Assembly (NCBI GenBank): GCA_963765575.1
Contig: CAVXWZ010000011.1
Coordinates: 64,001 to 128,000, forward strand
From: an uncultured cyanobacterium
Lineage (GTDB): Bacteria; Cyanobacteriota; Cyanobacteriia; PCC-6307; Cyanobiaceae
DNA length: 64,000 nt
Reading direction: 5' to 3'
Positions 11,535-24,548 of the stretch are shown here, piece after piece. The notes beneath the pieces are model-generated. The model had not been told where the DNA came from and searched no databases. It was given only the letters and a program-made list of their open reading frames with translations. Made by a program: the position numbers and the translations under genes. The stretch's first letter is position 1. The number at the start of each line of letters is the position of its first letter.

Positions 11535-12242
11535 ATGCCCAAGCTGTCCAAGCGCTATTCCGACCTGGCCGCCAAGGTCGATGAGCGGTCCTACGCCCCG
11601 CTCGAGGCCATCGAGCTGGTGAAGGCCAACGCCACGGCCAAGTTCGACGAGACGATCGAGGCCCACGTGCGCCTCGGCATCGATCCCAAGTACACCGACC
11701 AGCAACTGCGCACCACCGTGGCCCTGCCCCACGGCACCGGCCAGGCCATCCGCATCGCCGTGATCGCCCGCGGTGAAGCCGTGGCCGCCGCCAAGGCCGC
11801 CGGTGCGGATCTCTCCGGCGACGACGACCTGGTGGAGGCCATCGCCAAGGGGGAGATGGACTTCGACCTGCTGATCGCCACCCCGGACATGATGCCCAAG
11901 GTGGCCAAGCTCGGCCGCGTGCTCGGCCCCCGCGGTCTGATGCCCAACCCCAAGGCCGGCACCGTGACCACCGACCTGGCCGGCGCCATCGGCGACTTCA
12001 AGGCCGGCAAGCTGGAGTTCCGCGCCGACCGCAGCGGCATCGTGCACGTGCGCTTCGGCAAGGCCAGCTTCGAGCCCGCCAAGTTGCTCGACAACCTCAA
12101 GGCCCTGCAGGAAACCATCGACCGCCAGAAGCCCAGTGGCGCCAAGGGCCGCTACTGGCGCTCCCTCTACGTCACCTCCACCATGGGTCCCTCGGTGCAG
12201 GTGGACTTCGCCGCCCTGCAGGACATCAAGCAGGAGGGTTGA
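11535..12242 (+). CDS. rplA: 50S ribosomal protein L1
   Basis: [37 protein letters not shown]. Confidence 0.98.
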
Positions 12243-12439
12243 GGCCGAGAGGAGGGCGAGGCGGCGCGGCTGCTTCCCAGGCCCTGCCTGCTTCGATGAC
12301 CGTGACGCACAGTGGCCACGGATGGCCTGGTGCCGCTGACCCCGCCGCGCTAGCGGCAGCTGGCTCCAGGCAGGCGGCAACCTTGCGGCTCTCCTGCAGC
12401 TGTTCTTTCAGGGTTGGGAGGAGGAAGCTCCCGAGGCGG

Positions 12440-13862
12440 AGGTGATCTGGAGCACCGAGGGGTCCGTGCGGCGGCGCGAGTCTGACCTCGGCGGTACGCG
12501 AGGCCCGGCGGCAGCTGGCCAGCTGTGGATGTTGGCCGGGCCGCCGCCATGTGGGTCTTTACCTCGGAGACGACAGTCCCAACCTCGTGGCTGGGTTGGC
12601 CTTCTTTCTCGATGGCCATTGCCAGATCGTGCTGCCCCAGCACGCCCCCCGTGATCAACTGAGCCAGCAGCTCATCACCATGGGCTGTGATCGGATCCTC
12701 AGCGACCAGCCTGACTTCGTGCCATCAGGCTGGCAGCCCAGGGCGACTCTGGCCTGGGCTGGCGGCCGGCTCCAGCTGCTCTGCCCTGAAGCTGAAGAGC
12801 CGCCGGGGCCAGGCTGCGCCGGATCCGGACCTCGCCTCTGCCGCGTTTCAGATCCTCTCCTCGGGAACCACCACGGGGCTTCCTTCGCTGCAGAGCCGCA
12901 CGTTTTTCTCGCTGCTCAGCTACGCCACCGCTGGCGAAGACTGGCTCTACTACACGCCCAGGCGCCTGGTGTGGCGCAACCTGCAGTTTCCCGGGCCCCG
13001 GGCCCAGCTGCTCAACCTGATCCTGGCCGGTGGCTGCCTCTGCTGGTTCTGCGCTGAGCAGGAGGATCAGCTCGGGGAGCTCTATGGCCGTAGTGGTGCC
13101 ACCCGCCTCCATCTCTTCGTGCCGCTGCTGCGGCGGCTGGTGGCCCAACAGGCCCTGCTGCGCTTCCCCGCTGAGCTGCAGTTGCTGGTCGGCACCGACC
13201 GGGTGCCAACGGCCCTGCGCGCTGCCGTGCACCGCCAGCGCCCGTCCAGCCTGGCCATCACCTACTCCACCAGCCAGTGCGGGCCGATCACGTACCTGCC
13301 CGCCAACCGGGCGCTGGAGCAGCCGGAATCGGTGGGCTGGCCGCTGCCCAACGTCCAGGTGGGGTTCATGGCGCCGCCAGACCGTGATGGGGCTGCCGAG
13401 ATCGTGGTCGACAAGACCATCACCCTGGCCTATCCCTCGCCGCTGGTCGGCTGGCAAGAGCACACCCAGTCCGTGGCGGCACTTCGCCCTGGCGATCGGT
13501 TGCGCAAACTGGACGATGGCCAGTTTCTCTATGCCGGCAGGGCCAATGATGTTTTCCTGCTGCGGGGGGTGCTGGTGTCGCCCCACGAACTGGAGGCCTT
13601 CCTGGAAGCCCAGCCCGGGGTGCTCGAGGCGGTGGCCTTCGGCGCCGAATCGAGCACCTATGGCGCGGTGCCCATGGCGGTAGTCCAGCTGGCGCCAGGA
13701 TTGGACCCCACGACAACGGCCCAGCAGCTGCAACGGCGCTCCCGGCAGCTCTTTGGTTTCCGAGGTCTCTATGCCGTTCACATCAACCAGGAGGTGCCTC
13801 GGGGAGTGGGAGGCAAGCCGCTGCGGCGGCAGCTCGCCCAGATCTACCGGCTGAACGCCTGA
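12440..13862 (+). CDS. Adenylate-forming (AMP-binding, acyl-CoA synthetase-like) enzyme 1, frameshifted, start uncertain
   Basis: SSGTTTGLP P-loop, YSTSQ, PGD, GRAND, C-terminal PRGVGGKPLRR; N-terminal part lies in the frame of ORF 12551..13057. Confidence 0.75.
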
Positions 13863-13878
13863 CCCTGCAGGCAGGGGC

Positions 13879-14382
13879 TCAGCCGCCGGGTCGTTTCAGA
13901 AAGCGCAGGGCTTCGGCACGGAATCCCCGCCGTTCATAGAAGCGGTGGGCGTCGTGGTTGGCGAATTTGGAGAACAATTGAAAGGCCCTGGCACCCCTGG
14001 CCGCCATGAACTCCTCGGAGTGAGCGAGCAGACGGTTGCCGATGCCCTTGCCGCGGTGCTCCGGGGCGACAGCCAGGGCCAGGATCCAGCCCATGGGTTC
14101 ATCACAGGTGTAAACCGGAAGCAGGATCAGGCCAATGAACCCCGTCAGCTCGCCGTTGTTGTCGGCCACGAAGCACTTGTAGAGGTGGTCGGGCATGGCC
14201 TCCAGCCGCCGCTGGATCGCCCCGGGGGTGGAGGGATAGCCGAGGCTGCCCACCAGGCAGGCGATGGCGGGGAGGTCGCTGTCGCGCAGGTCACGGATCA
14301 GGCCGGCACAGGCCGCATGGCTTTCACCGCCGCCTCCGCTTTCTGGACGGTTGTCCCAGGGCAGCTGGGCAGGAGCTGTCAC
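13879..14382 (-). CDS. GNAT family N-acetyltransferase
   Basis: Motif A LAVAPEHRGKGIGNRLL and motif B AHRFYERRGF. Confidence 0.9.
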   Translation of the reverse strand: MTAPAQLPWDNRPESGGGGESHAACAGLIRDLRDSDLPAIACLVGSLGYPSTPGAIQRRLEAMPDHLYKCFVADNNGELTGFIGLILLPVYTCDEPMGWILALAVAPEHRGKGIGNRLLAHSEEFMAARGARAFQLFSKFANHDAHRFYERRGFRAEALRFLKRPGG

Positions 14383-15970
14383 GACCTCAGGGCAAACTGC
14401 TCGGCCAACACACGCCGCAGGGGTTTGCCCGTGGGTCCGCGGGGGACATCCTCCACGATGACGACCTGCTTGGCCGAGCGAAAACCGAGCAACTCACGAC
14501 AGTGGTCCCGAAGCTGGGCGGCGATCTCCCTTGAGACCTCCGCTTCCGCTTCACCCACGGCCGCCCGGGCCGCTACGGCTGCACGGGCAGAGCCGCTCAG
14601 CATCACAGCGGCCATCGGGATGGCTCCGTAGGGGCTGGCCGGGGCGCCGAAGGCCACGCAGTCGGCCACGTCCGGTCGCTCTCGCAGCACGTCCTCGATC
14701 TCGAATGGAGACACCAGCACGCCACAGAACAGGAACACGTCATTGGAGCGACCCCCAAATCGGATCTGTCCGGTAGAGGATCGGGCCAGCAGATCGCCGG
14801 GGTTGAAGCTGCTGGTGTCCTCAAGCAGCTCGATCCTCCCAACTGCCATCGTTCCGGGGCAACCGCAGCCAGCGGCTCTTCCGAATCACCATTTCGTGAT
14901 AATCAAGCCCCTGCTTGTGCAGCAGCGCTGGACCATGGGGTTGGAAGCTCACACTCTCAAGGGGAAAACCCACCGATTCCACCTCGTCCAGCAGCTGCTC
15001 CGGAGGTAACCAGGTGAGCGGCCCCGTCTGGCTGGTGGCATAGGTGATGCCGAGCCGCAGCTTGCCGAGAGCTCGCCACCGCTCGACGCAGGTCCATGGG
15101 GATGTGGTCCGAGCCGGTAATGCAGAGAAATCCTTCCGGAAAACGACCGAGCTGTCCCTGCTGGAGCAGGCGCCGCAGGGTCAGGGGCGGGCAGGAGAAG
15201 CCGCTGGTGTTCGGGGGCAGCGAGCTGGGATCGAGCCCATGCCCGTCGCGCACCACGATGGGCTGGCCCCGCAGCAGGTAGCGCAGCTTGAACACCCGGG
15301 AGCTGTAGTCCTGCAGGCCCGGGCCCAGCAAGGGCTGCTCCAGGAGGTCGAAGGGCGACCAGTTCAGCCCCTGCTGCAGGGAGGCCATCCTCAGAAAGCT
15401 GATCCGGTGGATGCCCGGTCGACCGGAGGTGGTGCCTGACGTGATCGACAGAAAGGCGGCCGCATCGGCTCCCGCCTCGGCACCATCGTGATCCTTGTCG
15501 AAACCCGCCCCACGCCGATCCGATGGCCCTGGATCACGGATCTCAAGCAGCTGCAGACCCTCGGCGGTGATCCCCAAAGGGCGCACCTCCGCTTCGTCCA
15601 GGGGGCACTCTCCCTCGACGAGCAGGTGGGTGAGCTCCAGCCGCCGGATCAGTTCACGCCGTTCCCGCGCTGGGGCATAGCGGGCCAGCACGGCTTGGCT
15701 CATGCCAGCCCATACCAGCGCCAGCATGGCGATCAGATGCCGGGGGGAATCGCTGGCGTGAACCCCGACCCGGATCGGCCGGGACCTGGAGCAGCCTGAC
15801 AATGGATCCTGGAGCGCCCTGCCTTCCTGACGTAGCCGCTGCAGCAACTCCAGTCCAGTGATTCCAGGCAGATCGCCCCAGTCGATGACAACAATGTCTG
15901 AGGCGGCGACGAGCCGTTGCTCGAGCTCACCACGAAGCGTGTGGATTGCAAGGTCGCACCCGCAGCTCAT
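14379..15970 (-). CDS. Adenylate-forming enzyme 2, split by frameshifts (14957..15970 + 14379..14849)
   Basis: TSGTTSGRPG, ITGSD, NPGDL, GGRSNDVF, VSPFEIE, PRGPTGKPLRR; overlaps GNAT start and HExxH stop. Confidence 0.8.
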
Positions 15971-16995
15971 ACCGCCGGCTGTGGGCTCAGTTCGAGGCGG
16001 TCACAACAGATCTGCATAATCTGATGTCCCAGGGCGGTGAGACGACCATGCCGCTGAATGGCACCCAGGGACGACTGCGTGAGTTCCTGCACAGAGGAGC
16101 GCAGTGTCTGCAGCTCCACGACCAGCTGGTCTCGGTCGGAGCGCCAGGGCATCGGGTGGCGGATAGCGGCGTCGAGAAAGGCCACCAGCCGCGCCGCCAC
16201 ATAAAAGGAATGGAGGATGCCGTTCATCGGCCTTGGATCGCGGCGAATCAGCACGCTGTAGCGCTCCTGGTCGGTGTTGGTGCACATCAGCTCGTTCTGG
16301 GAGAGCACGAACAGTTCGGCATGGGCGTATTCGTGGATCAGGGTCACAACCCAGGCGCAAAATGTACGCTCCATTGCCGCATTGATGATGCTGCCTCCCC
16401 TGAAGAAGAAGGTGGTGGCACTGCCGAACCATTGTCCCGCCTCCCTGGCGGCCGGTCCTGGCTCGGCCAAGATCACCACGGCTTGCAGGGCTTCCATGCC
16501 CCGTGCCAGAGGGGCATCGATTTTGCCAATGAAGTCGCGAGCTTCGCTGATGATGGCTGCCTGGGTGGTGCAACGGGCCGGAGCTGGGCTCTCGAGATCG
16601 AGCAGGAAATCGCCTCCTTCCGAGAAGAGTCCCACCAGCAGATCCCAGTGCTGGAGCGGCCGCGACTCCGCTCCATAGGCCAGGACCGTCAGTGGGGGCA
16701 GGAGATGTCTGATCTCCAGCCGCAGTGCTTCGATGAGGTCCGCAGCTGGGATGGCGTCAGGGTTTTGCAGCAGGATGCGGCCGATCTTCCAGTAGAAGAG
16801 ATACACCCATGGGCTCAGGGTGTTCTGGGCTTGCTGTTCAAAACGATCCTGCAGGGCTGCTGCCAACTGTGCTTCTGCCAGTGCAGGGGAATGGCCCTCA
16901 AAGGCCTGTATTGACCAGAGCAGATCAGATCGTCCGAGTGCCAACAGCTCAACGATCGACGCTACCTCAGGTGAGGTGTCGGATTTGAGAGTCAA
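15967..16995 (-). CDS. HExxH-motif putative peptide-modifying protein (aKG-HExxH type) 2
   Basis: FGSATTFFFRGG, LIHEYAHAELF, YSVLIRRDPRPMNGILHSFYV, LTALG. Confidence 0.85.
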   Translation of the reverse strand: MTLKSDTSPEVASIVELLALGRSDLLWSIQAFEGHSPALAEAQLAAALQDRFEQQAQNTLSPWVYLFYWKIGRILLQNPDAIPAADLIEALRLEIRHLLPPLTVLAYGAESRPLQHWDLLVGLFSEGGDFLLDLESPAPARCTTQAAIISEARDFIGKIDAPLARGMEALQAVVILAEPGPAAREAGQWFGSATTFFFRGGSIINAAMERTFCAWVVTLIHEYAHAELFVLSQNELMCTNTDQERYSVLIRRDPRPMNGILHSFYVAARLVAFLDAAIRHPMPWRSDRDQLVVELQTLRSSVQELTQSSLGAIQRHGRLTALGHQIMQICCDRLELSPQPAV

Positions 16996-17177
16996 GCAGC
17001 ATTTCCACCATTGCCGGATTCGCCTTCACCCACTTTGGCCGAAAGGTGCGACTGGCAGGTGGGAACCGAGGCCGAGTTGCTGTGGTCGGGATCAATGAAT
17101 GGATCAGAGGGCTCTGCGCCTGAATTGGCTAGTGCCAAAGCTGCGAGTCGAAAACCGAAGAGATGACTGAGTTGCAT
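16992..17177 (-). CDS. Putative precursor peptide (61 aa), divergent family member
   Basis: MQLSHLFGFRLAALALANSGAEPSDPFIDPDHSNSASVPTCQSHLSAKVGEGESGNGGNAA; shares LFGF and KVG; stop overlaps HExxH-2 start. Confidence 0.7.
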   Translation of the reverse strand: MQLSHLFGFRLAALALANSGAEPSDPFIDPDHSNSASVPTCQSHLSAKVGEGESGNGGNAA

Positions 17178-17399
17178 GGTTGGCACAACAATAGTGGTGA
17201 AAAGGAGAACAAGCCTGGCAGCATCACCGGTCCGCCTCTCCTTCACTCACTTTGGCCGATAGCTGGGATGGGGATGTGTCGACCGCGACAGCTAGGTGCG
17301 TCACGGTGGCCTCCCCGAGGGTGGCTGGGCTGAGGCTGGGCCCACGGTTGACATCACGTATCAGATTGCGAGAAGGTCCCATGCTGACGAGTAGCCAGT

Positions 17400-17678
17400 T
17401 TGAGCCACGACCCAGCCCCAGACCGCGAGCTCGCCATGATCGGCAGCGCCCTGCGCTCCCTCTCCCTGCCGCCGCAGGATCTTGAGGGGCTTGAGGCTGA
17501 GCTGCGTCGTGACCACGCCAGTCTGCCGATCGAGCACCTGGGGCTGGACAGCCTCGGCCGCATGGAGTTCTGCATCCACCTGGAGCTCGACCACGGGGTG
17601 GTGATCACTCCGGAAACCCTGATCACGCTGAAGACGGTGGCGGCGTTGATCGAGTCGATCCAGGCCCAGTTGGTCTGA
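17400..17678 (+). CDS. Acyl/peptidyl carrier protein
   Basis: LGLDSLGRMEF phosphopantetheine Ser motif, acidic ~80-92 aa, TVAALIE; alternative ATG at 17436. Confidence 0.85.
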   Translation: MSHDPAPDRELAMIGSALRSLSLPPQDLEGLEAELRRDHASLPIEHLGLDSLGRMEFCIHLELDHGVVITPETLITLKTVAALIESIQAQLV

Positions 17679-17682
17679 ATAG

Positions 17683-18718
17683 CTAGCCCGCCAGCTCTTC
17701 GGCCCCCACATCCCAGGCCAGGGGATCCAGGCCCTCTGAAGCCTCGTCTTGGCGAGCCTCGGTTCGCAGCAGGCTGGGCATGGCCTGCTCCAGATTCACC
17801 CCCTGCAGGAGCAGGTCGTGGAACAGGGTGTGGTGGGTGCAGCCCCTGTAGACGCGTCCACTGATCCTGCTCTGGCGCCGGTGCTGCTGCTGGTAGTAGC
17901 TGGCGATCGAGCCAGCGCAGGAGCGATCGGCGGCGTTGTGTTCGGGGTAGGCGAGCACCAGGCGGGTGCGCGGCCATCGCGGCCACCAGCTGCCGATGCC
18001 GCCGTGGGCCCTGGCCACGGCGCCGCCGGGCCGGAAGGTTTGGGGTTCACCACCTGCACCGATGGCCACACCCTGGGCCAGCCCCAGCTGCTGAGCCACC
18101 ACCAAAGCGGCCAGGCCGCCGGCGCTGGTGCCCAGGGTCTGCACCTGGGAGCGGCGCAGGCCACTGCGGCTGAGCCTGCCGAGGTGCTGACGCAGATGAC
18201 GGGTGATGTCTCGCAACACCTCGCCCTGGTGATGGAAATAGCCCTCGAGAGTATGGCGCCTGCACCAGCAGAAGATCGTGCCCGATTGTGCCGAGCGCCG
18301 AGAGGATGTAGGGCGTCGGCGCCATCAGCAGCCCCACATTGCCGGTGAAGCCGATCAGCACAGGCCGGGGCGGGCCATCGGAATCCGGAAGCGGAGCGGC
18401 TTGATAATGAATGATCTCGTGATACTTTCCCGGGTGTACCCGCCGGCTATAGCGGGCTGTGGCCGTCCTGTAGGAGGGCGAAAATCGTTTGGCTTTCTGT
18501 CGCCATCGCTTGAAATCGGAACTGGCGCCTGAATCGCGACGGGCCAGCCGCAACAGCGCTGCCAGCTCGCTGCCAGTGGCGAAGCGATCGATCAGCATCT
18601 GGTGCTGGTTGATGCGATTGGTGTTCAGCGCTTTGAGTCGCTCATACCACTGCGCCGGGGATTCGGCGCGCAGCTCTCGCTCCAGCTCCTCCCAGGGAAG
18701 TTGGGGGGGGCTGGTCAT
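17683..18718 (-). CDS. Alpha/beta-hydrolase-like protein, frameshifted near 18250
   Basis: N-part MTSPPQLPWEE...VLIGFTGNVGLLM; C-part LGTSAGGLAALVVA (GxSxG) and GCTHH; ATG overlaps the upstream stop. Confidence 0.55.
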
Positions 18719-21164
18719 GTCTGCAGGGCGTACTGCTCGCTGAGCAGCCGGCGCAGGGGCTTCCCGGTTGGGCCTGCGGGAATGGCATCGAGCGCCATGA
18801 TCCGGCGGGGACGGCGCTGGCCGAGGCCAGCGCGGGCCAGCTGGTCGAGTTCGGCAAGAACAGCGGGAGCTTGATGGCCGGTCCGCAGGCGCACGGCGGC
18901 CATCGGCACGCCCCCATAGCGCTTGGATTGGGCGCCGAAGGCCACGCATTGCTCCACGGCCTCGTGCTGGCTGAGCACCTCCTCGATCTCGTAGGGAGAG
19001 ATCAGCACGCTGGCGAACAGGAAGATGTCATTGGAGCGCCCCCCGAAGATCACCTGGCCCGATGCCGAGAAGGCCAGCAGGTCGCCCGGGTTGAAGGGGC
19101 TGTAGCCGGGCGCGCACACGATCACCTCACGGAAGCTGAGTCCGTCCCGTTCGTAGCGCACCGGACCGGTGGGCTCGAGCGTGACGCCCCGCAGGGGCCA
19201 GCCCACCGAATCCTTCTCCGCCAGCAGCGCTTCCGGGGGCAACCAGGTGAGCGGCCCGCTCTGGCTGGTGGCGTAGGTGATGCCCAGGCGCACGGTGCCG
19301 ATCGCCGCCACGGCCTGCCGCAGGTCCATCGGCACCCGGTCGCTGCCGCTGATCAGCAGAAACCCTGGCGGGCAGTGGCGCAGGTCGTCCCAGGCCAGAT
19401 GCAGCCGCAGCCCGTTGGGCGGCATCGGCATGCCATCGCAGTGCTCCGGGATGCTGCCGGCGGCGAACGGGGTGTCGCTGGAGCGAATCACCAGACCGCT
19501 TCCCTTGAGCAACACCACAAACTTGAACAGGCGGGCACTCCAGTTCTGGAGCCCCTCGCCCAGCAACGGCGAACGCAGCAGGTGGAAGGGGGAGTGAGCG
19601 TCTCCTGGATGCAGCATGGAGATGGCCTTCGCCTCCACCAGCCCCGGACGGCCTGAGCTGGTGCCCGAGGTGGTGCCGATCAAGAGCACGGGATTGCTGC
19701 CAGGCGCCTCGCCACAGACTTCAGGCGTGCTCTGGCGCTGCCAGCAGCCCAGGCCCGAGGGCAGGGAGCCGAGGCGGATCCAGTCCCCGGCGGTCTGGGG
19801 AGCCGGTGGCCGATGCGGTGGGTGAGGGCGAGGCGGTGTTCGAGCGCCTCCTGCTCGCGGGTGGTGGCGGTGATGGGCAGGATGGTCTGGGGCAGGGCCG
19901 AGAGCATCAGCGCCATCCCCGTGATCAGATTCACGGGGCCGTCTTCGATCTGAATGCCCACCCGGGCGGTGACTCCCCAGGTCTTGAGGGGGATGAGGGT
20001 GTGCAGTTCGCGCCGCTCGTTGGCGACCCGTTCGGCGAGGTTGTTGTAGCTGATGCTGTGTCCCAGCCAGTCGATGGCGGTGGCATCGGGCTCGGCACGG
20101 GTCAGCTCCCGCCAGCGCTCGTTGAGCTGCTCCTGCACGGGTTGCAGTGTCCCAGCCTCAACGGCGCTGGGCAGGGATACGGTGCCCCGGCCGCACCGCT
20201 CCAGCCGTTGGGCGGCAGCGTCCACCACCACCTCGCCGATGGGGGTGAGCCTGGCGTGCTCGCGCACCACTGCCAAAGAGGAGAGGCCCTGGGCCAGCTG
20301 TTGCTCCCGCAGTTGCTGAAAGGCGGCCAGGTCCTCCGGGCCAGTGAGGAGATCCATCGGCGGCTGGCTGAGGATCGTGTCGATCACGCCGATCACCCGC
20401 GAGACCACATGCAGGGAATGGAGGATGCCGTGCATCGGGCGGGGATCGGCGCGGATCAGCACCTGGTGGCGCTCCTCGTCGCGGTTGAGGCAGAGCACCT
20501 GCTCCTGCCCCAGGGCAAACAGCTCGCCGTGGGCATACTCATGCACCAGCACCTCCACGGTGGCAGCGAGGCTGCGCGGCAGCGAGGCGTTGAGCACACT
20601 GGCGCCACGAAAGAAGAAGGCTGTGACTCCGCCGAACGACTCTCCTCGCCGTTGGGAGCGGGGCCCGGGGATCGCCAGCACAAGCAGCCGCTGAAGCCGC
20701 AGCATCAAGCCATGCAGGTCAGGGTCGACCAGGGCAATCAGACGGCGTGCGGTCTGGATTTCCTGCTTCAGGGCGTCCAGGTGCAGCGCTGAGGGGGCAG
20801 AGAGATCCTCGACGAAGTCGCCACCTTCCTGCAGCACTGCCAGCAGGGTGGTCCACATCTGCGGGGACGCCTGATCGGAATCCCCGAACGCCACAACAGT
20901 GGGCCCTTGTGCAGGTGAGCCCCTCTCAGCAACGTGACTGTCGTGAGCCAGCCCATGCTCGGCCAGGGCCAATGCGGTGGTGAAGGCCCGCTGCCGTGCC
21001 TGGGAGCCAACCGGCAGATCGGACAGCACCACTTTGCCGAGCTCGTAGTAACCGAGATAGAGCCAGGGAGAGAGGGAGGTTGGCTGGTCCTCGATCCTTT
21101 GTTGAACTGTCTGCGGCAGTAAACCCCAGCCCAGCGATGGATCATGGGCGCTCAGCAAGGACAC
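18715..21164 (-). CDS. HExxH domain protein 1 continuing into adenylate-forming domain 3 (apparent fusion; frameshift ~19700-19830)
   Basis: LVHEYAHGELF...IRADPRPMHGILHSLHV, then PDATAIDWLGHSISYNNL; after shift TTSGTSSGRPG, YATSQ, NPGDL, GRSND, PAGPTGKPLRR. Confidence 0.8.
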
Positions 21165-21345
21165 AGAGTCGGCTGAACTGCCGGTGGGCTGTATTCACCG
21201 CTCTGTGCACGCTGGAAGCGAGGTGGTTTTCGCCTGCGATCACGGGGAGAAGCTGCTTGGGGCTAGCCGAGTGGTTGAGTTGTGGCAGACAGTTTTACTT
21301 CAGCGTGGAAAAGGTTTGTTCAAGCGGGATCGAAGCTTGGGTTGG

Positions 21346-21498
21346 TTAATTTGGAATCATTTCAACGTTGATTCCCCGATGAGGGATGTCGATCTCATAT
21401 TCTCTACCCTCTCCGCCAATTTTTGGCTGAGTGCTGGAGGGGATGGCGTCGTGAGGCGCGAAGCCAAAAAGCTCGGTGATGAGAGCGGTATTGGTCAT
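21346..21498 (-). CDS. Putative precursor peptide A (50 aa)
   Basis: MTNTALITELFGFAPHDAIPSSTQPKIGGEGREYEIDIPHRGINVEMIPN*. Confidence 0.8.
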   Translation of the reverse strand: MTNTALITELFGFAPHDAIPSSTQPKIGGEGREYEIDIPHRGINVEMIPN

Positions 21499-21661
21499 GG
21501 AACTGTGGAGATGTGAATTCGAAGAGAATCGATTGAAGGCGTCATGATCGAGATATTGACGCTTCTACTTAATCAAACGAGAAACTGTTGCTAGCTGGTC
21601 TTTGCGGGTGGATGAATCCAGCTGGGAGGCCGAAGCGTGGTGGCTTCGTGACCTTTAAGGC

Positions 21662-21823
21662 TCACCAGATTTCAATCGGGGGCCACGGCTTTTCTACGCC
21701 GACGTGCTCAGTGGGAAACAATGGACGTCCAACTTTCGGCTGAGTGCTGGAGGAAATGGTGTGCTGACGGGCGAAACCAAAGAGGCAACCCGCGAGAGAA
21801 ACGTTGTCAGAGAGGATGGCCAT
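21662..21823 (-). CDS. Putative precursor peptide B (53 aa)
   Basis: MAILSDNVSLAGCLFGFARQHTISSSTQPKVGRPLFPTEHVGVEKPWPPIEIW*. Confidence 0.8.
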   Translation of the reverse strand: MAILSDNVSLAGCLFGFARQHTISSSTQPKVGRPLFPTEHVGVEKPWPPIEIW

Positions 21824-22058
21824 TGAACAGCAAATCACAATGTGACGCATTTTTGCTGGGTTGCCAGAGTTTGTCAAGCCCCAGATCCGGGACGCCATTG
21901 ATCTCCCCGTCGCTCCCCGGGTTGACAGGCGATGAAGGCGAGCTGAGGGTAGGGCTAAGGCTTGATTTTGCCCGATGGGGTTCGGTCTGATCCACCTCTG
22001 CCCTCGGCCAGGGGCTCGCCGAACGACTGAATGCTGCCAGCCACGCCAGAGCTGGTCT

Positions 22059-22196
22059 TTAGGCTGGAATGGCTTCGTATCCGGGCGGCATGGGTTGAAC
22101 TGGGATGCCATTACCCATCTTGGGCTGGATACTGGAAGGAATGCTGTATTGACGGGCGAACCCGAAAAGCTTGTTTGCGAGGGCGGGATTGGTCAT
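22059..22196 (-). CDS. Putative precursor peptide C (45 aa)
   Basis: MTNPALANKLFGFARQYSIPSSIQPKMGNGIPVQPMPPGYEAIPA*. Confidence 0.85.
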   Translation of the reverse strand: MTNPALANKLFGFARQYSIPSSIQPKMGNGIPVQPMPPGYEAIPA

Positions 22197-22538
22197 GGGT
22201 TAAATGAAGTGAGAGGGCTGAAGTGAAGGTGGTTTGGCTGAGGTGGCTTCAACACTTAAAGATTTCGCTCTGCCAGGGAGGGGAGGTGCGTATCATAGGC
22301 AATCTAGAGCTGAAGAGATCTCAGCGGCTCAAAAGATCAGAGACGAGTTGCTTGACCCGCCTCCTTTTCAGATTCTAATTTCGCTCTTTCCCCCGAGATT
22401 GTCAAGCAGGAGCTGAGATCGCGAGGGGAGTATTTCAACAGGACTGACGGTTCTCTTCCCATGGCGCAGCGGGGGGGGCCGCCGGACAGCCTTCCAGAAA
22501 CAGTCAGCACAGAAAGGTAAGAATGCTATTCATCAGAC

Positions 22539-22566
22539 AAACCTCTGAGCAATTGCTCAGAGGTTT
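22539..22566. repeat. Perfect 28-bp palindrome
   Basis: aaacctctgagcaattgctcagaggttt. Confidence 0.9.
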
Positions 22567-22621
22567 TTACTGCTACTGATTTTGGGAATCAATTGGCGAC
22601 CTCTAACCCGTGGCACTCACC

Positions 22622-22915
22622 ATGCGCTGCTTTGCTGGGATCGACATGATCACCAACCGGACCCCGGACGGGACTACGATTCTGGCGTTTCAGGGCCCCA
22701 TGGTTGACGATGTGGCAGGGCATCGGAAAGTGGCCAGATATGGGTGACAGCAAGACGGAGTTCAGGATCGCCTTGCGGCCTGGGCACCGCAAGGAACTGC
22801 CTGATACGGCCTAGGACAGGTTGAGCATGCCTTCCCGGTGGTTAATCAGCAGTATTGCTTTGAGAAGACATGGACTCGGGCCATGGAGAAAACCGTTGCA
22901 AGGAGATCCTGCTGA
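22622..22915 (+). mobile_element. Degenerate IS5-family transposase remnant
   Basis: MRCFAGIDMITNRTPDGTTILAF / WQGIGKWPDMGDSKTEFRIALRPGHRKELPDT / EHAFPVVNQQYCFEKT resemble IS5 segments PDETTILxF, AMRPGKR and VEHPFRVIKQQFG. Confidence 0.7.
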
Positions 22916-23247
22916 CTGCACGACCAAGAAATCTGGCCTAAATGCTCAACATTCAGCCAGCGGACGTTGGCTTTGACAAGCTGTTTGGTTGACGGAGTTG
23001 AGCGGACCATGTTGCAGATAACTTCAGCAACTGCGGCTGTGTGGTAACCAAAGTTCTGTACCTGCGGGCCTTGAGATGCTTCCCGCAGGCGATCGGAGGA
23101 ACAGGGACCGGATGGGTTCCGCCAAAGCAGTAGTTGTTGAAAAATGGAGTATTAGACGCTCGCTTTTTTAGAGCGGACTAGTCCGAATTTAAGACTAATG
23201 TACTCAACTTTGCGCTCTTGAAGCTAACTCTAAGTTTCCGGGTAGTT

Positions 23248-23399
23248 TTAGTTTTCTATGATTTCGCCTGGAGGGAGAGGATTCTTTGGGCCGACATGCA
23301 CTGAGCTCTCCAATTTTGGGCTGTGTGCTGGAGGGAATCGTGTGCTGACGGGCGAAGCCGAAAGAGGCCATCGACAAGAAGCGAGCTTGAATAAGGCAT
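23248..23399 (-). CDS. Putative precursor peptide D (two apparent +1 frameshifts)
   Basis: MPYSSSLLVDGL / FGFARQHTIPSSTQPKIGE / SVHVGPKNPLPPGEIIEN*; span is 152 nt = 150+2. Confidence 0.65.
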
Positions 23400-23672
23400 A
23401 GTCACGGCAATGTGGATGGAATTGTAGTCACCATGCATTTGCTGCCCGAATTCGACAAGCCCCCGATCCGGGCCGCCAACGGGCTCTCTGGGGGTGCCTG
23501 ACATGGTGAAAGCTTCTGGCCTAATCACCAACTCCAAAGGCGTCGCAGACCATTTGGGGCGGGTCTCAAGCCTGACTCCCCCCGATGCTGCTCTAGTGTG
23601 ATCCAACTCTGACCTTGGACAGGGGGCTCGGCGAATGACTGAACGCTGCCAGGCCCCCCCCAGAGCTGATGT

Positions 23673-23810
23673 TTACTCTGGATTGGCTTCGTAGGCGGGG
23701 GACCTGGGTCTGAAGTCTGGGCCACCACCGATCTTGGGCTGAGTGCTGGAGGGGGTGGTGTATTGAGGTGCGAAGCCAAAAAGCTTGGGGATGAGAGCGG
23801 TATTGGACAT
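23673..23810 (-). CDS. Putative precursor peptide E (45 aa)
   Basis: MSNTALIPKLFGFAPQYTTPSSTQPKIGGGPDFRPRSPAYEANPE*. Confidence 0.85.
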   Translation of the reverse strand: MSNTALIPKLFGFAPQYTTPSSTQPKIGGGPDFRPRSPAYEANPE

Positions 23811-24028
23811 GGAATTGCAGGAATGTGATTCGAAGGTGACCGAAAAAAGAGGCGTCGTGATCGAGATATTGATACTTTTGCTTGATCAAGCGAGAGTGTC
23901 TTTGTCGCGCTGACCTTCCCGGGGGGATGAATACAGCGTACAGATAAGGAGGGCCCCCTAGTGCCCTATGGAGTGTTGAAAGCAAGCCTCAGAGTAATTT
24001 TAGCGGTACTCTGCTTCCATCGGGGGCT

Positions 24029-24148
24029 TCACTCGCGGCGTGCACGGCGACCCCCAACTTTCGGCTGAATGCTGGAGGGAATGGTGTGCTGACGCGCGAA
24101 ACCAAAGAGGTTGGTCACGAGAGCAGGATTTCCTGAAAGCTTTGCCAC
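24029..24148 (-). CDS. Putative precursor peptide F (39 aa as read; C-terminus uncertain at a G5 run)
   Basis: (GTG)MAKLSGNPALVTNLFGFARQHTIPSSIQPKVGGRRARRE*. Confidence 0.75.
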   Translation of the reverse strand: MAKLSGNPALVTNLFGFARQHTIPSSIQPKVGGRRARRE

Positions 24149-24419
24149 TGGAGGAATTACTATGACTCCTCTCACCTTGGCCTGGTTGCCAGGGTTTGTG
24201 CAACCCCAATATCCGGGACGCCATCGACCTCTCTGGAGATCCCTGCCGACCCTGGCAGTACTCACCATTGCTCCGCGGGGCAGAGAGGCGCTGAAGCCGA
24301 GCTGAGGGCAGGGCTCAGGCTTGATATCGACCGATCGGGTGCGGTGCTGATCAGCCTCTGCCTTCGGCCAGGTGCTGGCCACGCGAGTGAACTGCTGTCA
24401 GCCACGCCAAAGCTGGTCT

Positions 24420-24548
24420 TTAGGTTGGATTGGCTTCGTAGGGGGGTTGAACTGGCGTGCCCACACCCATCTTGGGCTGAGTGCTGGAGGGGATGGTGTA
24501 TTGACGGGAGAAGCCAAACAGCTTGTTGACGAAGATGGGATTGGCCAT
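24420..24548 (-). CDS. Putative precursor peptide G (42 aa)
   Basis: MANPIFVNKLFGFSRQYTIPSSTQPKMGVGTPVQPPYEANPT*. Confidence 0.85.
   Translation of the reverse strand: MANPIFVNKLFGFSRQYTIPSSTQPKMGVGTPVQPPYEANPT

Follow-up and report, generated by a model that had tools for sequence, protein, structure and literature searches.

Nosiheptide (NosI/NosJ/NosK) and lactocillin (LclJ/LclI/LclK) provide the described precedent, according to the accessible text of PMC5585349, for an adenylating enzyme, a carrier protein and an α/β-hydrolase acting together on a peptide that is made by the ribosome and modified after translation (RiPP). The HExxH oxygenases, which depend on α-ketoglutarate (αKG) and include ChlH, PflC/PosC, PesO and BpmH (TIGR04267), form a recently defined family whose reactions are not yet predictable; the characterized targets given in the accessible part of PMC13060819 are His, Asp, Phe, Gln and Pro, which become hydroxylated. 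Here, we describe a gene cluster that joins this oxygenase family to a carrier-protein acyl relay in an uncultured cyanobacterium of the family Cyanobiaceae. The cluster lies in a stretch of 64,000 nucleotides (GenBank assembly GCA_963765575.1, contig CAVXWZ010000011.1, positions 64,001 to 128,000 of the forward strand; hereafter the window) of a genome of 2.71 Mb in 11 contigs, and it occupies the whole interval between two genes that we take, from their sequences, to be rplA (ending at 12242) and rplJ (at ~25110). Few peptide natural products are known from picocyanobacteria, the genomes of which are small, and, to our knowledge, a carrier-protein acyl relay has been known in RiPPs from thiopeptides only. 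The cluster is a real, conserved and apparently undescribed candidate RiPP class of picocyanobacteria, which, by comparison with described systems, would work like a NosIJK relay joined to an αKG-HExxH RiPP, outside the thiopeptides, selidamides, graspetides and triceptides.

The original prediction, made from this DNA alone, had listed two HExxH proteins, three AMP-binding enzymes, an acyl carrier protein (ACP; LGLDSL), a GNAT, a GxSxG hydrolase-like gene and eight short open reading frames (ORFs) of LFGF type taken as RiPP precursors, with 4-bp stop/start overlaps between genes. All of these parts are present between rplA and rplJ: the two αKG-HExxH, three adenylate-forming (pieces of AMP-binding and AMP-binding_C), ACP and GNAT genes were recovered with TIGR04267 and Pfam, the GxSxG (here GTSAGG) gene has the predicted fold of an α/β-hydrolase, and, of the eight LFGF…K[VIM]G peptide genes, seven form an array (21346-24548) whereas the eighth stands apart (16992-17177). 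Four overlaps (TTGA, ATGA, GTGA and ATGA) couple the precursor p8, the oxygenase H1, the adenylate-forming enzyme A2 and the GNAT (p8-H1-A2-GNAT) and, separately, A3 and the hydrolase. What the prediction had overlooked is that the three ligases, the hydrolase and one HExxH gene are broken in this copy, as discussed below. Three ligases and eight peptides, although present, represent a local expansion and not the basic plan.

The basic plan is defined by intact relatives. H1 matched 4 of 31 other genomes of the same genus, and a profile search of 400 genomes of the family gave 10 matches, of which five reach 1e-122 or better, four are distant and one is a fragment; the HExxH homologues are named as Cyanobium and Synechococcaceae proteins. 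Profile scans yielded 8 genome and 13 metagenome loci, 21 in total, of which three duplicate known loci and several are near-identical. An LFGF/KVG peptide adjoins the HExxH gene in 19 of the 21, and the contigs of the other two start inside the HExxH gene; homologous clusters thus carry such peptides, in support of their prediction as precursors. Together with the peptide motif and a codon-position bias (see below), this gives the locus what is expected of a RiPP at the gene level, a gene-encoded leader/core precursor beside modifying enzymes. A ligase was found in 17 of the 21 loci, a hydrolase in 13, an ACP in 13 and a GNAT in 1, and absences of the first three coincide with contig ends, except in one locus (L013). 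The whole rplA-rplJ interval is spanned in 11 loci (nine of the 21, plus those of genomes G019 and G101), among which L013 is the only one without hydrolase and ACP; the L013 genome encodes both side by side elsewhere, with the hydrolase triad intact. In the compact clusters, all genes are accounted for. The basic plan is therefore precursor, HExxH oxygenase, ligase, Ser-Asp-His hydrolase and ACP, which share a single chromosomal location across several genera, in freshwater as well as marine members, and the GNAT, with the adenylate-forming enzyme A1, is accessory.

The precursors are 45-80 residues long and consist of a short xFGF leader followed by one to four cores with the consensus S-x-[LVIT]-x-x-K-[VIMF]-G. 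Five array members, all on the reverse strand, were recognized as ORFs with the motif and codon-position bias, namely p7 (21346..21498, core SSTQPKIG), p6 (21662..21823, SSTQPKVG), p5 (22059..22196, SSIQPKMG), p3 (23673..23810, SSTQPKIG) and p1 (24420..24548, SSTQPKMG). Two further members on the same strand were recovered by alignment of the array, p4 (23204..23402) with a six-frame motif scan, as it is broken by an extra base inside LFGF at ~23360, and p2 (24029..24148, SSIQPKVG) with the motif, as it has a GTG start and a tail that is probably frameshifted after KVG. The eighth, p8 (16992..17177, reverse strand; ORF and motif), is of the canonical type, with an LFGFRL leader and the core SHLSAKVG, and overlaps the start of H1. 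Tandem duplication gave rise to the seven array copies, as an alignment of ~800 bp with 70% identity shows. Because their pairwise differences concentrate at third codon positions (0.12, 0.09 and 0.395 at the first, second and third positions, respectively), the array peptides behave like translated genes, and, when all six frames of the 2.71-Mb genome were scanned, the LFGF-type motif proved to be confined to the cluster. The array is interrupted by a 28-bp perfect palindrome (window 22539-22566) and by a 74-bp piece (window 22618-22691) with 79-85% matches on contigs C1 and C9, which are possibly a mobile-element remnant.

Among 28 distinct peptides with 41 cores, which were chosen by K-[VIMF]-[GSA] with the other positions left unselected, the residue five positions before the Lys, Ser(-5), is Ser in 40 and Thr in 1, position -3 is Leu, Val, Thr or Ile in 41 of 41, and position +2 is Gly in 37, Ser in 3 and Ala in 1. 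When the set was thinned to 20 peptides, Ser(-5) was present in 24 of 25 distinct cores, compared with 8% Ser in the remainder of the peptides; because the cores are related, this enrichment is not an independent test. The original prediction noted the invariant Lys and missed this near-invariant Ser, which could be a natural acceptor or a second anchor. The 41-core alignment contains no conserved Cys, and a Lys-Glu lactam was rejected since acidic core residues have no fixed position. A scan of 14 precursors against NCBIfam named none of them and detected no NHLP/Nif11 leader.

Both oxygenase genes are on the reverse strand, and their products are the sole two matches in the genome to TIGR04267 (cut-off, 40 bits): H1 (15967..16995, intact) scores 70.7 bits and H2 (20190..21243, frameshift near the 5' end at ~21171) scores 74 bits. 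As predicted, both carry the HExxH…RxDPRP..G.LH signature. The nearest solved structure to the family profile is ChlH (8s5f, E 6e-6). H1 and H2 fall in different branches, with H2 grouping with its counterpart in genome G007 (support 97/94), which indicates that two old paralogous modules are present in the genome. The H2 reading frame lacks a stop and runs on into A3 (window 19680-21164), and the two would be an HExxH-ligase fusion if the frameshift at ~19803 is an assembly error. A weak search for longer fused HExxH forms found 0 among 8000 scored. A single-protein scan of the genome contigs gave no match. The predicted complex of the G101 HExxH protein with its precursor, computed without alignments, scored 0.02.

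The core adenylate-forming enzyme is A3 (18715..20140, reverse strand; 67% identity to the G007 copy; ANL fold), the 5' part of which is in frame with H2 and which is frameshifted at ~19803. A2 (14379..15970, reverse strand) was recognized by pieces of Pfam AMP-binding, with frameshifts at ~15073 and ~14830, and the accessory A1 (12382..13862, forward strand; Pfam AMP-binding, 62% identity to the intact G101 copy) has frameshifts at ~12478 and ~12810 and no in-frame start upstream of 12442. The predicted structure of the ligase (predicted local distance difference test score (pLDDT) 86.5) has the ANL fold, and the nearest folds, at 17-20% identity, are CahJ and the oxalate-, chlorobenzoate- and succinylbenzoate-CoA ligases; in hidden Markov model (HMM) searches, a long-chain acyl-CoA ligase model scores equal to MenE. 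The catalytic residues Lys-465, Arg-373 and Asp-358 are kept, and Gln-203/Arg-208 are invariant. The stand-alone ACP (17400..17678, forward strand; LGLDSL, PF00550 32.2 bits) is intact, and Ser-51 and, unusually, Cys-58 are invariant in an alignment of 14. There are also weak matches, far under the cut-off, to the 2-oxoglutaryl-ACP pair AmcH/AmcB. A PPTase (phosphopantetheinyl transferase)-family gene is present.

The putative acyltransferase is the α/β-hydrolase (17683..18718, reverse strand; 74% identity to the intact G007 copy), which is frameshifted at ~18260 and matches no Pfam or NCBIfam family. The model (pLDDT 87) has an α/β-hydrolase fold, and the triad Ser-198, Asp-264 and His-296 is invariant in 19 aligned rows. 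A search of plasmids gave no match, G101 alone matched in a class sample of 400 genomes, and unnamed look-alike clusters occur mostly in Pseudomonadota. NosK is not among the structure matches listed for the hydrolase, and the two may still be kin. In composition, the ligase-ACP-hydrolase trio is that of NosI/NosJ/NosK, that is, an ANL enzyme, a carrier protein and a catalytic-triad α/β-hydrolase encoded together. We consider the hydrolase likely to be a transferase, a role that the original prediction overlooked when it listed what proved to be a conserved partner. The GNAT (13879..14382, reverse strand; PF00583 77.9 bits) is intact and travels with A1, and related copies were found in G007 and G101 only.

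Further, the HExxH profile matched 2,253 representatives (906 of them at E<=1e-10), and the scores show a gap beneath the cyanobacterial branch. In the wider HExxH branch, five distant cyanobacterial loci all have xGF-leader peptides upstream. L048 (7326-13728) encodes four YGFS-leader/AKIG-type precursors, an HExxH protein, a fused AMP-ACP-thioesterase-like gene and an ATP-grasp, whereas L047 (7759-11558), L049 (7220-10334) and L119 (7855-11806) combine HExxH and xGF-leader precursors with a large ATP-grasp-like ligase (assigned by Pfam in the first two and by resemblance only in L119), and in L050 (9117-11419) the HExxH gene is accompanied by a gene that matches no Pfam family and by a Lys/Gly-rich peptide. 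The latter four loci, with such partners in place of the ANL/ACP/hydrolase trio, are a further undescribed subtype and L048 is a second architecture of the same family. We note that the thioesterase-like part in L048 has GxCxA at the nucleophile position and that two glycosyltransferase genes lie upstream. A single protein, P0134, contains HExxH, AMP, ACP, thioesterase and sulfotransferase domains, and P0180 and P0076 have HExxH domains fused to TPR-sulfotransferase and glycosyltransferase domains; these fusions hint at more than one kind of decoration of the new hydroxyl. On an 89-kb viral, cyanophage-like contig (L081:9749-11514), an HExxH gene overlaps a virion structural gene, in which the 30 N-terminal residues form a complete leader and core (LFGY leader, SVVSPKVG) fused to an S-TIM5-like virion protein, which suggests RiPP-type modification of a phage particle protein; the tag and HExxH are absent from the other 32 loci of this virion protein (1 of 33 has them). 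All 12 precursors of the sister clusters and phage that were read in frame retain K[IV]G (one spurious match was dropped and L050 was left out), while Ser(-5) is found in 3 of 13 sister-cluster and phage cores, compared with the 24 of 25 in the subfamily studied here. Plasmid HExxH matches from Xenorhabdus and Pantoea (L052:9851-12180 and L053:9006-11731) have major facilitator superfamily (MFS) transporter neighbors and no ligase, ACP or peptide of this type, and were set aside as a different small system; G679 and G618 were likewise assigned to other systems.

Building on these protein families, conserved residues and gene linkages, we suggest the following substrates, sites and order of steps. 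Because HExxH and K[VI]G form the constant pair, the oxygenase most likely reads the leader and oxidizes the core at or near the Lys and, because its partner varies but in nearly every case activates carboxylates at the expense of ATP, the peptide is probably acylated as well. This combination of HExxH and acyl-activating domains recurs in distant branches (L048 and P0134), which supports it. In detail, the Fe/αKG-dependent HExxH enzyme would bind the short xFGF leader of a precursor with one to four cores and oxidize the Lys of the core or a position adjacent to it, with β-hydroxylation as the likeliest reaction. The ANL enzyme would adenylate a small acid from primary metabolism and load it onto the phosphopantetheine of the ACP, from which the Ser-Asp-His hydrolase would move the acyl group to the peptide, as proposed for NosK in nosiheptide, with Ser(-5), the new hydroxyl or the Lys amine as possible acceptors. 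A1 and the GNAT would constitute an optional second acylation module, and leader removal and export would rely on genes elsewhere. We give a RiPP of this kind, oxidized by HExxH and acylated with a small acid through a NosI/NosJ/NosK-like relay, an even chance of being correct.

Several observations weigh against this proposal. First, Lys is absent among the targets of characterized HExxH enzymes covered in the accessible part of PMC13060819, and transfer to the precursor was not observed in the NosK work, according to the accessible text of PMC5585349. Second, the hydrolase lacks a close solved relative (best Z 15.9, root mean square deviation 3.7, 210 aligned residues, tied among generic esterases) and could be a peptidase or a proofreading thioesterase. 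Third, the canonical A5 motif of adenylate-forming enzymes carries a Glu and the ligase has YATSQ, with Gln at this position, so that its activity is an assumption. Fourth, the interval from rplA to rplJ contains no conserved protease or transporter gene; the genes for leader removal and export may lie elsewhere, or the hydrolase or HExxH may do the cutting. In G101 only, a fused amino-acid ABC binding/permease-like gene (L046:10997-12538) lies between the precursor and rplJ. Finally, Ser(-5) occurs without a hydrolase in the 3 of 13 cores, the phage tag included, and the cores are related, which makes the covariation of Ser(-5) with the hydrolase loose.

The alternative that survives best, unlikely as we consider it, concerns this Ser. 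The S-x4-K spacing is fixed in 40 of 41 cores (Thr in 1) and falls outside the pattern by which cores were selected; a diacid that the hydrolase attaches to Ser(-5) as an ester and that also forms an amide with the Lys, or a Ser oxidized by HExxH and closed onto the Lys, would give a six-residue ring. We know of no RiPP in which Ser-Lys macrocyclization by a diacid staple occurs. The oxalate- and succinylbenzoate-CoA ligases among the top matches of the ligase, its invariant Gln-203/Arg-208 and the AmcH/AmcB matches, far below the cut-off, are consistent with a diacid, and PosC turns Ser into an aldehyde (accessible part of PMC12636437), but two activations would be needed where a single ligase is the rule among the clusters, the HMM scores that hint at a diacid are weak, and sister clusters function without Ser(-5).

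A little less probable still is oxidative cleavage of the backbone by HExxH, at the small residue in the K-[VIM]-G (or A-K) motif, with release of amidated cores and the hydrolase acting as a peptidase or cyclase. PflC/PosC cleave at Ala or Gly, as the same part of PMC12636437 describes, which fits the small +2 residue of the 41 cores (Gly 37, Ser 3, Ala 1), the repeated cores in a cluster without a protease gene and the S9 peptidases among the structure look-alikes. However, oxidative cleavage would leave the ligase and ACP unexplained and would detach the tag from the phage virion protein, and the hydrolase moves with the ACP.

We regard as improbable the lipopeptide of the original prediction, in which a GNAT would place a fatty acid on the invariant Lys, as in the selidamides, where GNAT acylation of Lys/Orn is the defining step (accessible text of PMC13647313). 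In its favor, this copy has an intact GNAT and a long-chain ligase HMM shares the best score, but a GNAT is encoded in 1 of the 21 loci plus G101, where its 5' end is interrupted, neither a LanM nor an NHLP/Nif11 leader accompanies it, and the nearest folds of the ligase are aryl- and di-acid ligases; a GNAT-centered or lipid-based interpretation is thus not supported. Least probable is a small molecule made on the ACP, oxidized there by HExxH and released by the hydrolase, with the peptides as unmodified regulators or scaffolds: P0134 resembles small-molecule assembly lines and NosN acts on a carrier-bound substrate (accessible text of PMC5585349), but a leader/core peptide accompanies HExxH even without an ACP (ATP-grasp clusters and phage), and the HExxH enzymes described in the accessible papers all act on peptides.

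How, then, does the cluster with the NosIJK-like relay compare with named classes? As in nosiheptide and lactocillin, an adenylating enzyme, a stand-alone carrier protein and an α/β-hydrolase would serve a ribosomal precursor; unlike in nosiheptide, there is an αKG-HExxH partner and no thiopeptide machinery (no YcaO, split LanB or pyridine synthase among the cluster ORFs), acid-making gene, conserved core Cys or Ser/Thr/Cys-rich core. The oxygenases resemble ChlH, PflC/PosC, PesO and BpmH in score and signature and differ in forming a stand-alone branch with a different precursor and without a radical SAM, MNIO or Asn-synthetase partner; the cluster has no radical SAM/SPASM cyclophane synthase of the triceptide (ChlBH) type, and linkage to acyl-transfer genes is not described in the accessible papers. 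The selidamides, acylated at Lys/Orn by KspN-type GNATs, share the cyanobacterial RiPP setting and, in this copy, a GNAT, but here the GNAT is accessory, LanM and the NHLP/Nif11 leader with its Gly-Gly site are missing, and a dedicated ligase, ACP and hydrolase are present instead. With the graspetides (microviridins and others), the cluster shares a short F-rich leader, repeated cores with conserved Ser/Thr and Lys and, in the sister clusters, an ATP-grasp, but this cluster has no ATP-grasp and no fixed Asp/Glu core partner. In the accessible text of a graspetide survey (PMC8939145), AMP-, acyl carrier, Synechococcus and Cyanobium each give 0 hits, and the main text of a survey of RiPP clusters in marine Synechococcus (PMC10783134), as far as accessible, has 0 hits for HEXXH, AMP or acyl carrier. 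We found no description of the cluster in the literature, although subscription papers or supplements, such as an HExxH genome-neighborhood table, could contain one. The original prediction did not recognize the gene combination as a named RiPP class, and we found no such class either.

More speculatively, and with a small chance of being right, the xFGF leader and K[VI]G core may be a portable tag that a dedicated branch of HExxH enzymes recognizes, while the ATP-dependent ligases are interchangeable, in which case an ACP-delivered diacid would staple Ser(-5) to the Lys in the present cluster and the tag would also work on the N terminus of a folded protein, as the tagged cyanophage virion protein suggests. 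A short tolerant leader, repeatable cores and a natural protein fusion would make this a useful tagging tool. Intact five-gene versions measure ~4.5 kb and require nothing beyond a PPTase, so that their chemistry lends itself to direct tests in E. coli. For such work, an intact relative, and not this broken copy, is the material of choice.

Frameshift-aware alignment to intact homologues revealed seven frameshifts in this copy: A1 and A2 carry two each, whereas A3, the hydrolase and H2 have a single one apiece. Six of the seven are +1, the remaining one is -1, and there are no premature stops. Two further compensating shifts in A2, visible against L009 alone, were dropped as alignment artefacts. 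The seven fall in ~2,760 codons (summed gene lengths), compared with 11 in 44,929 codons of 121 control genes from 400 kb of G019 (9 of them +1; four lie near N-termini and may be artefacts) and 0 in 5,984 codons of 18 flanking genes; 0.68 would be expected in the cluster (P ~7e-6). Because this excess is local to the cluster, recent decay is favored. Three single low-depth environmental contigs (~89-99% identity) lack the shifts at 12814, 14829 and 19806; for A2, a 155-nt contig with 2 differences is without the extra base at 14829, and, for A3, the contig carries the missing base. Assembly error is nevertheless a real contender, because the +1 bias is shared with the control, housekeeping-like genes are hit there too (two resemble what we take to be thrC and mgtE) and nonsense changes are absent. 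On balance, we lean towards decay of this copy over mis-assembly alone, to which we assign a somewhat lower but substantial probability. Long-term selection on the cluster, as judged from substitution ratios (nonsynonymous to synonymous, dN/dS 0.23-0.32 for five genes), was purifying. Elsewhere, +1 frameshifts lie in threonine synthase-like and MgtE transporter-like genes (G000 C1:328256 and C2:630658), and the coding sequence of this assembly may contain roughly one indel per 12 kb, a point of relevance to anything else found in the genome. An Rfam search gave 0 matches, and promoter and terminator counts were at chance level (2 versus 2.0 and 6 versus 8.4, respectively). The accessory module is damaged in relatives too: A1 is in fragments in G007, and the 5' end of the GNAT in G101 is interrupted by a transposase-like ORF.

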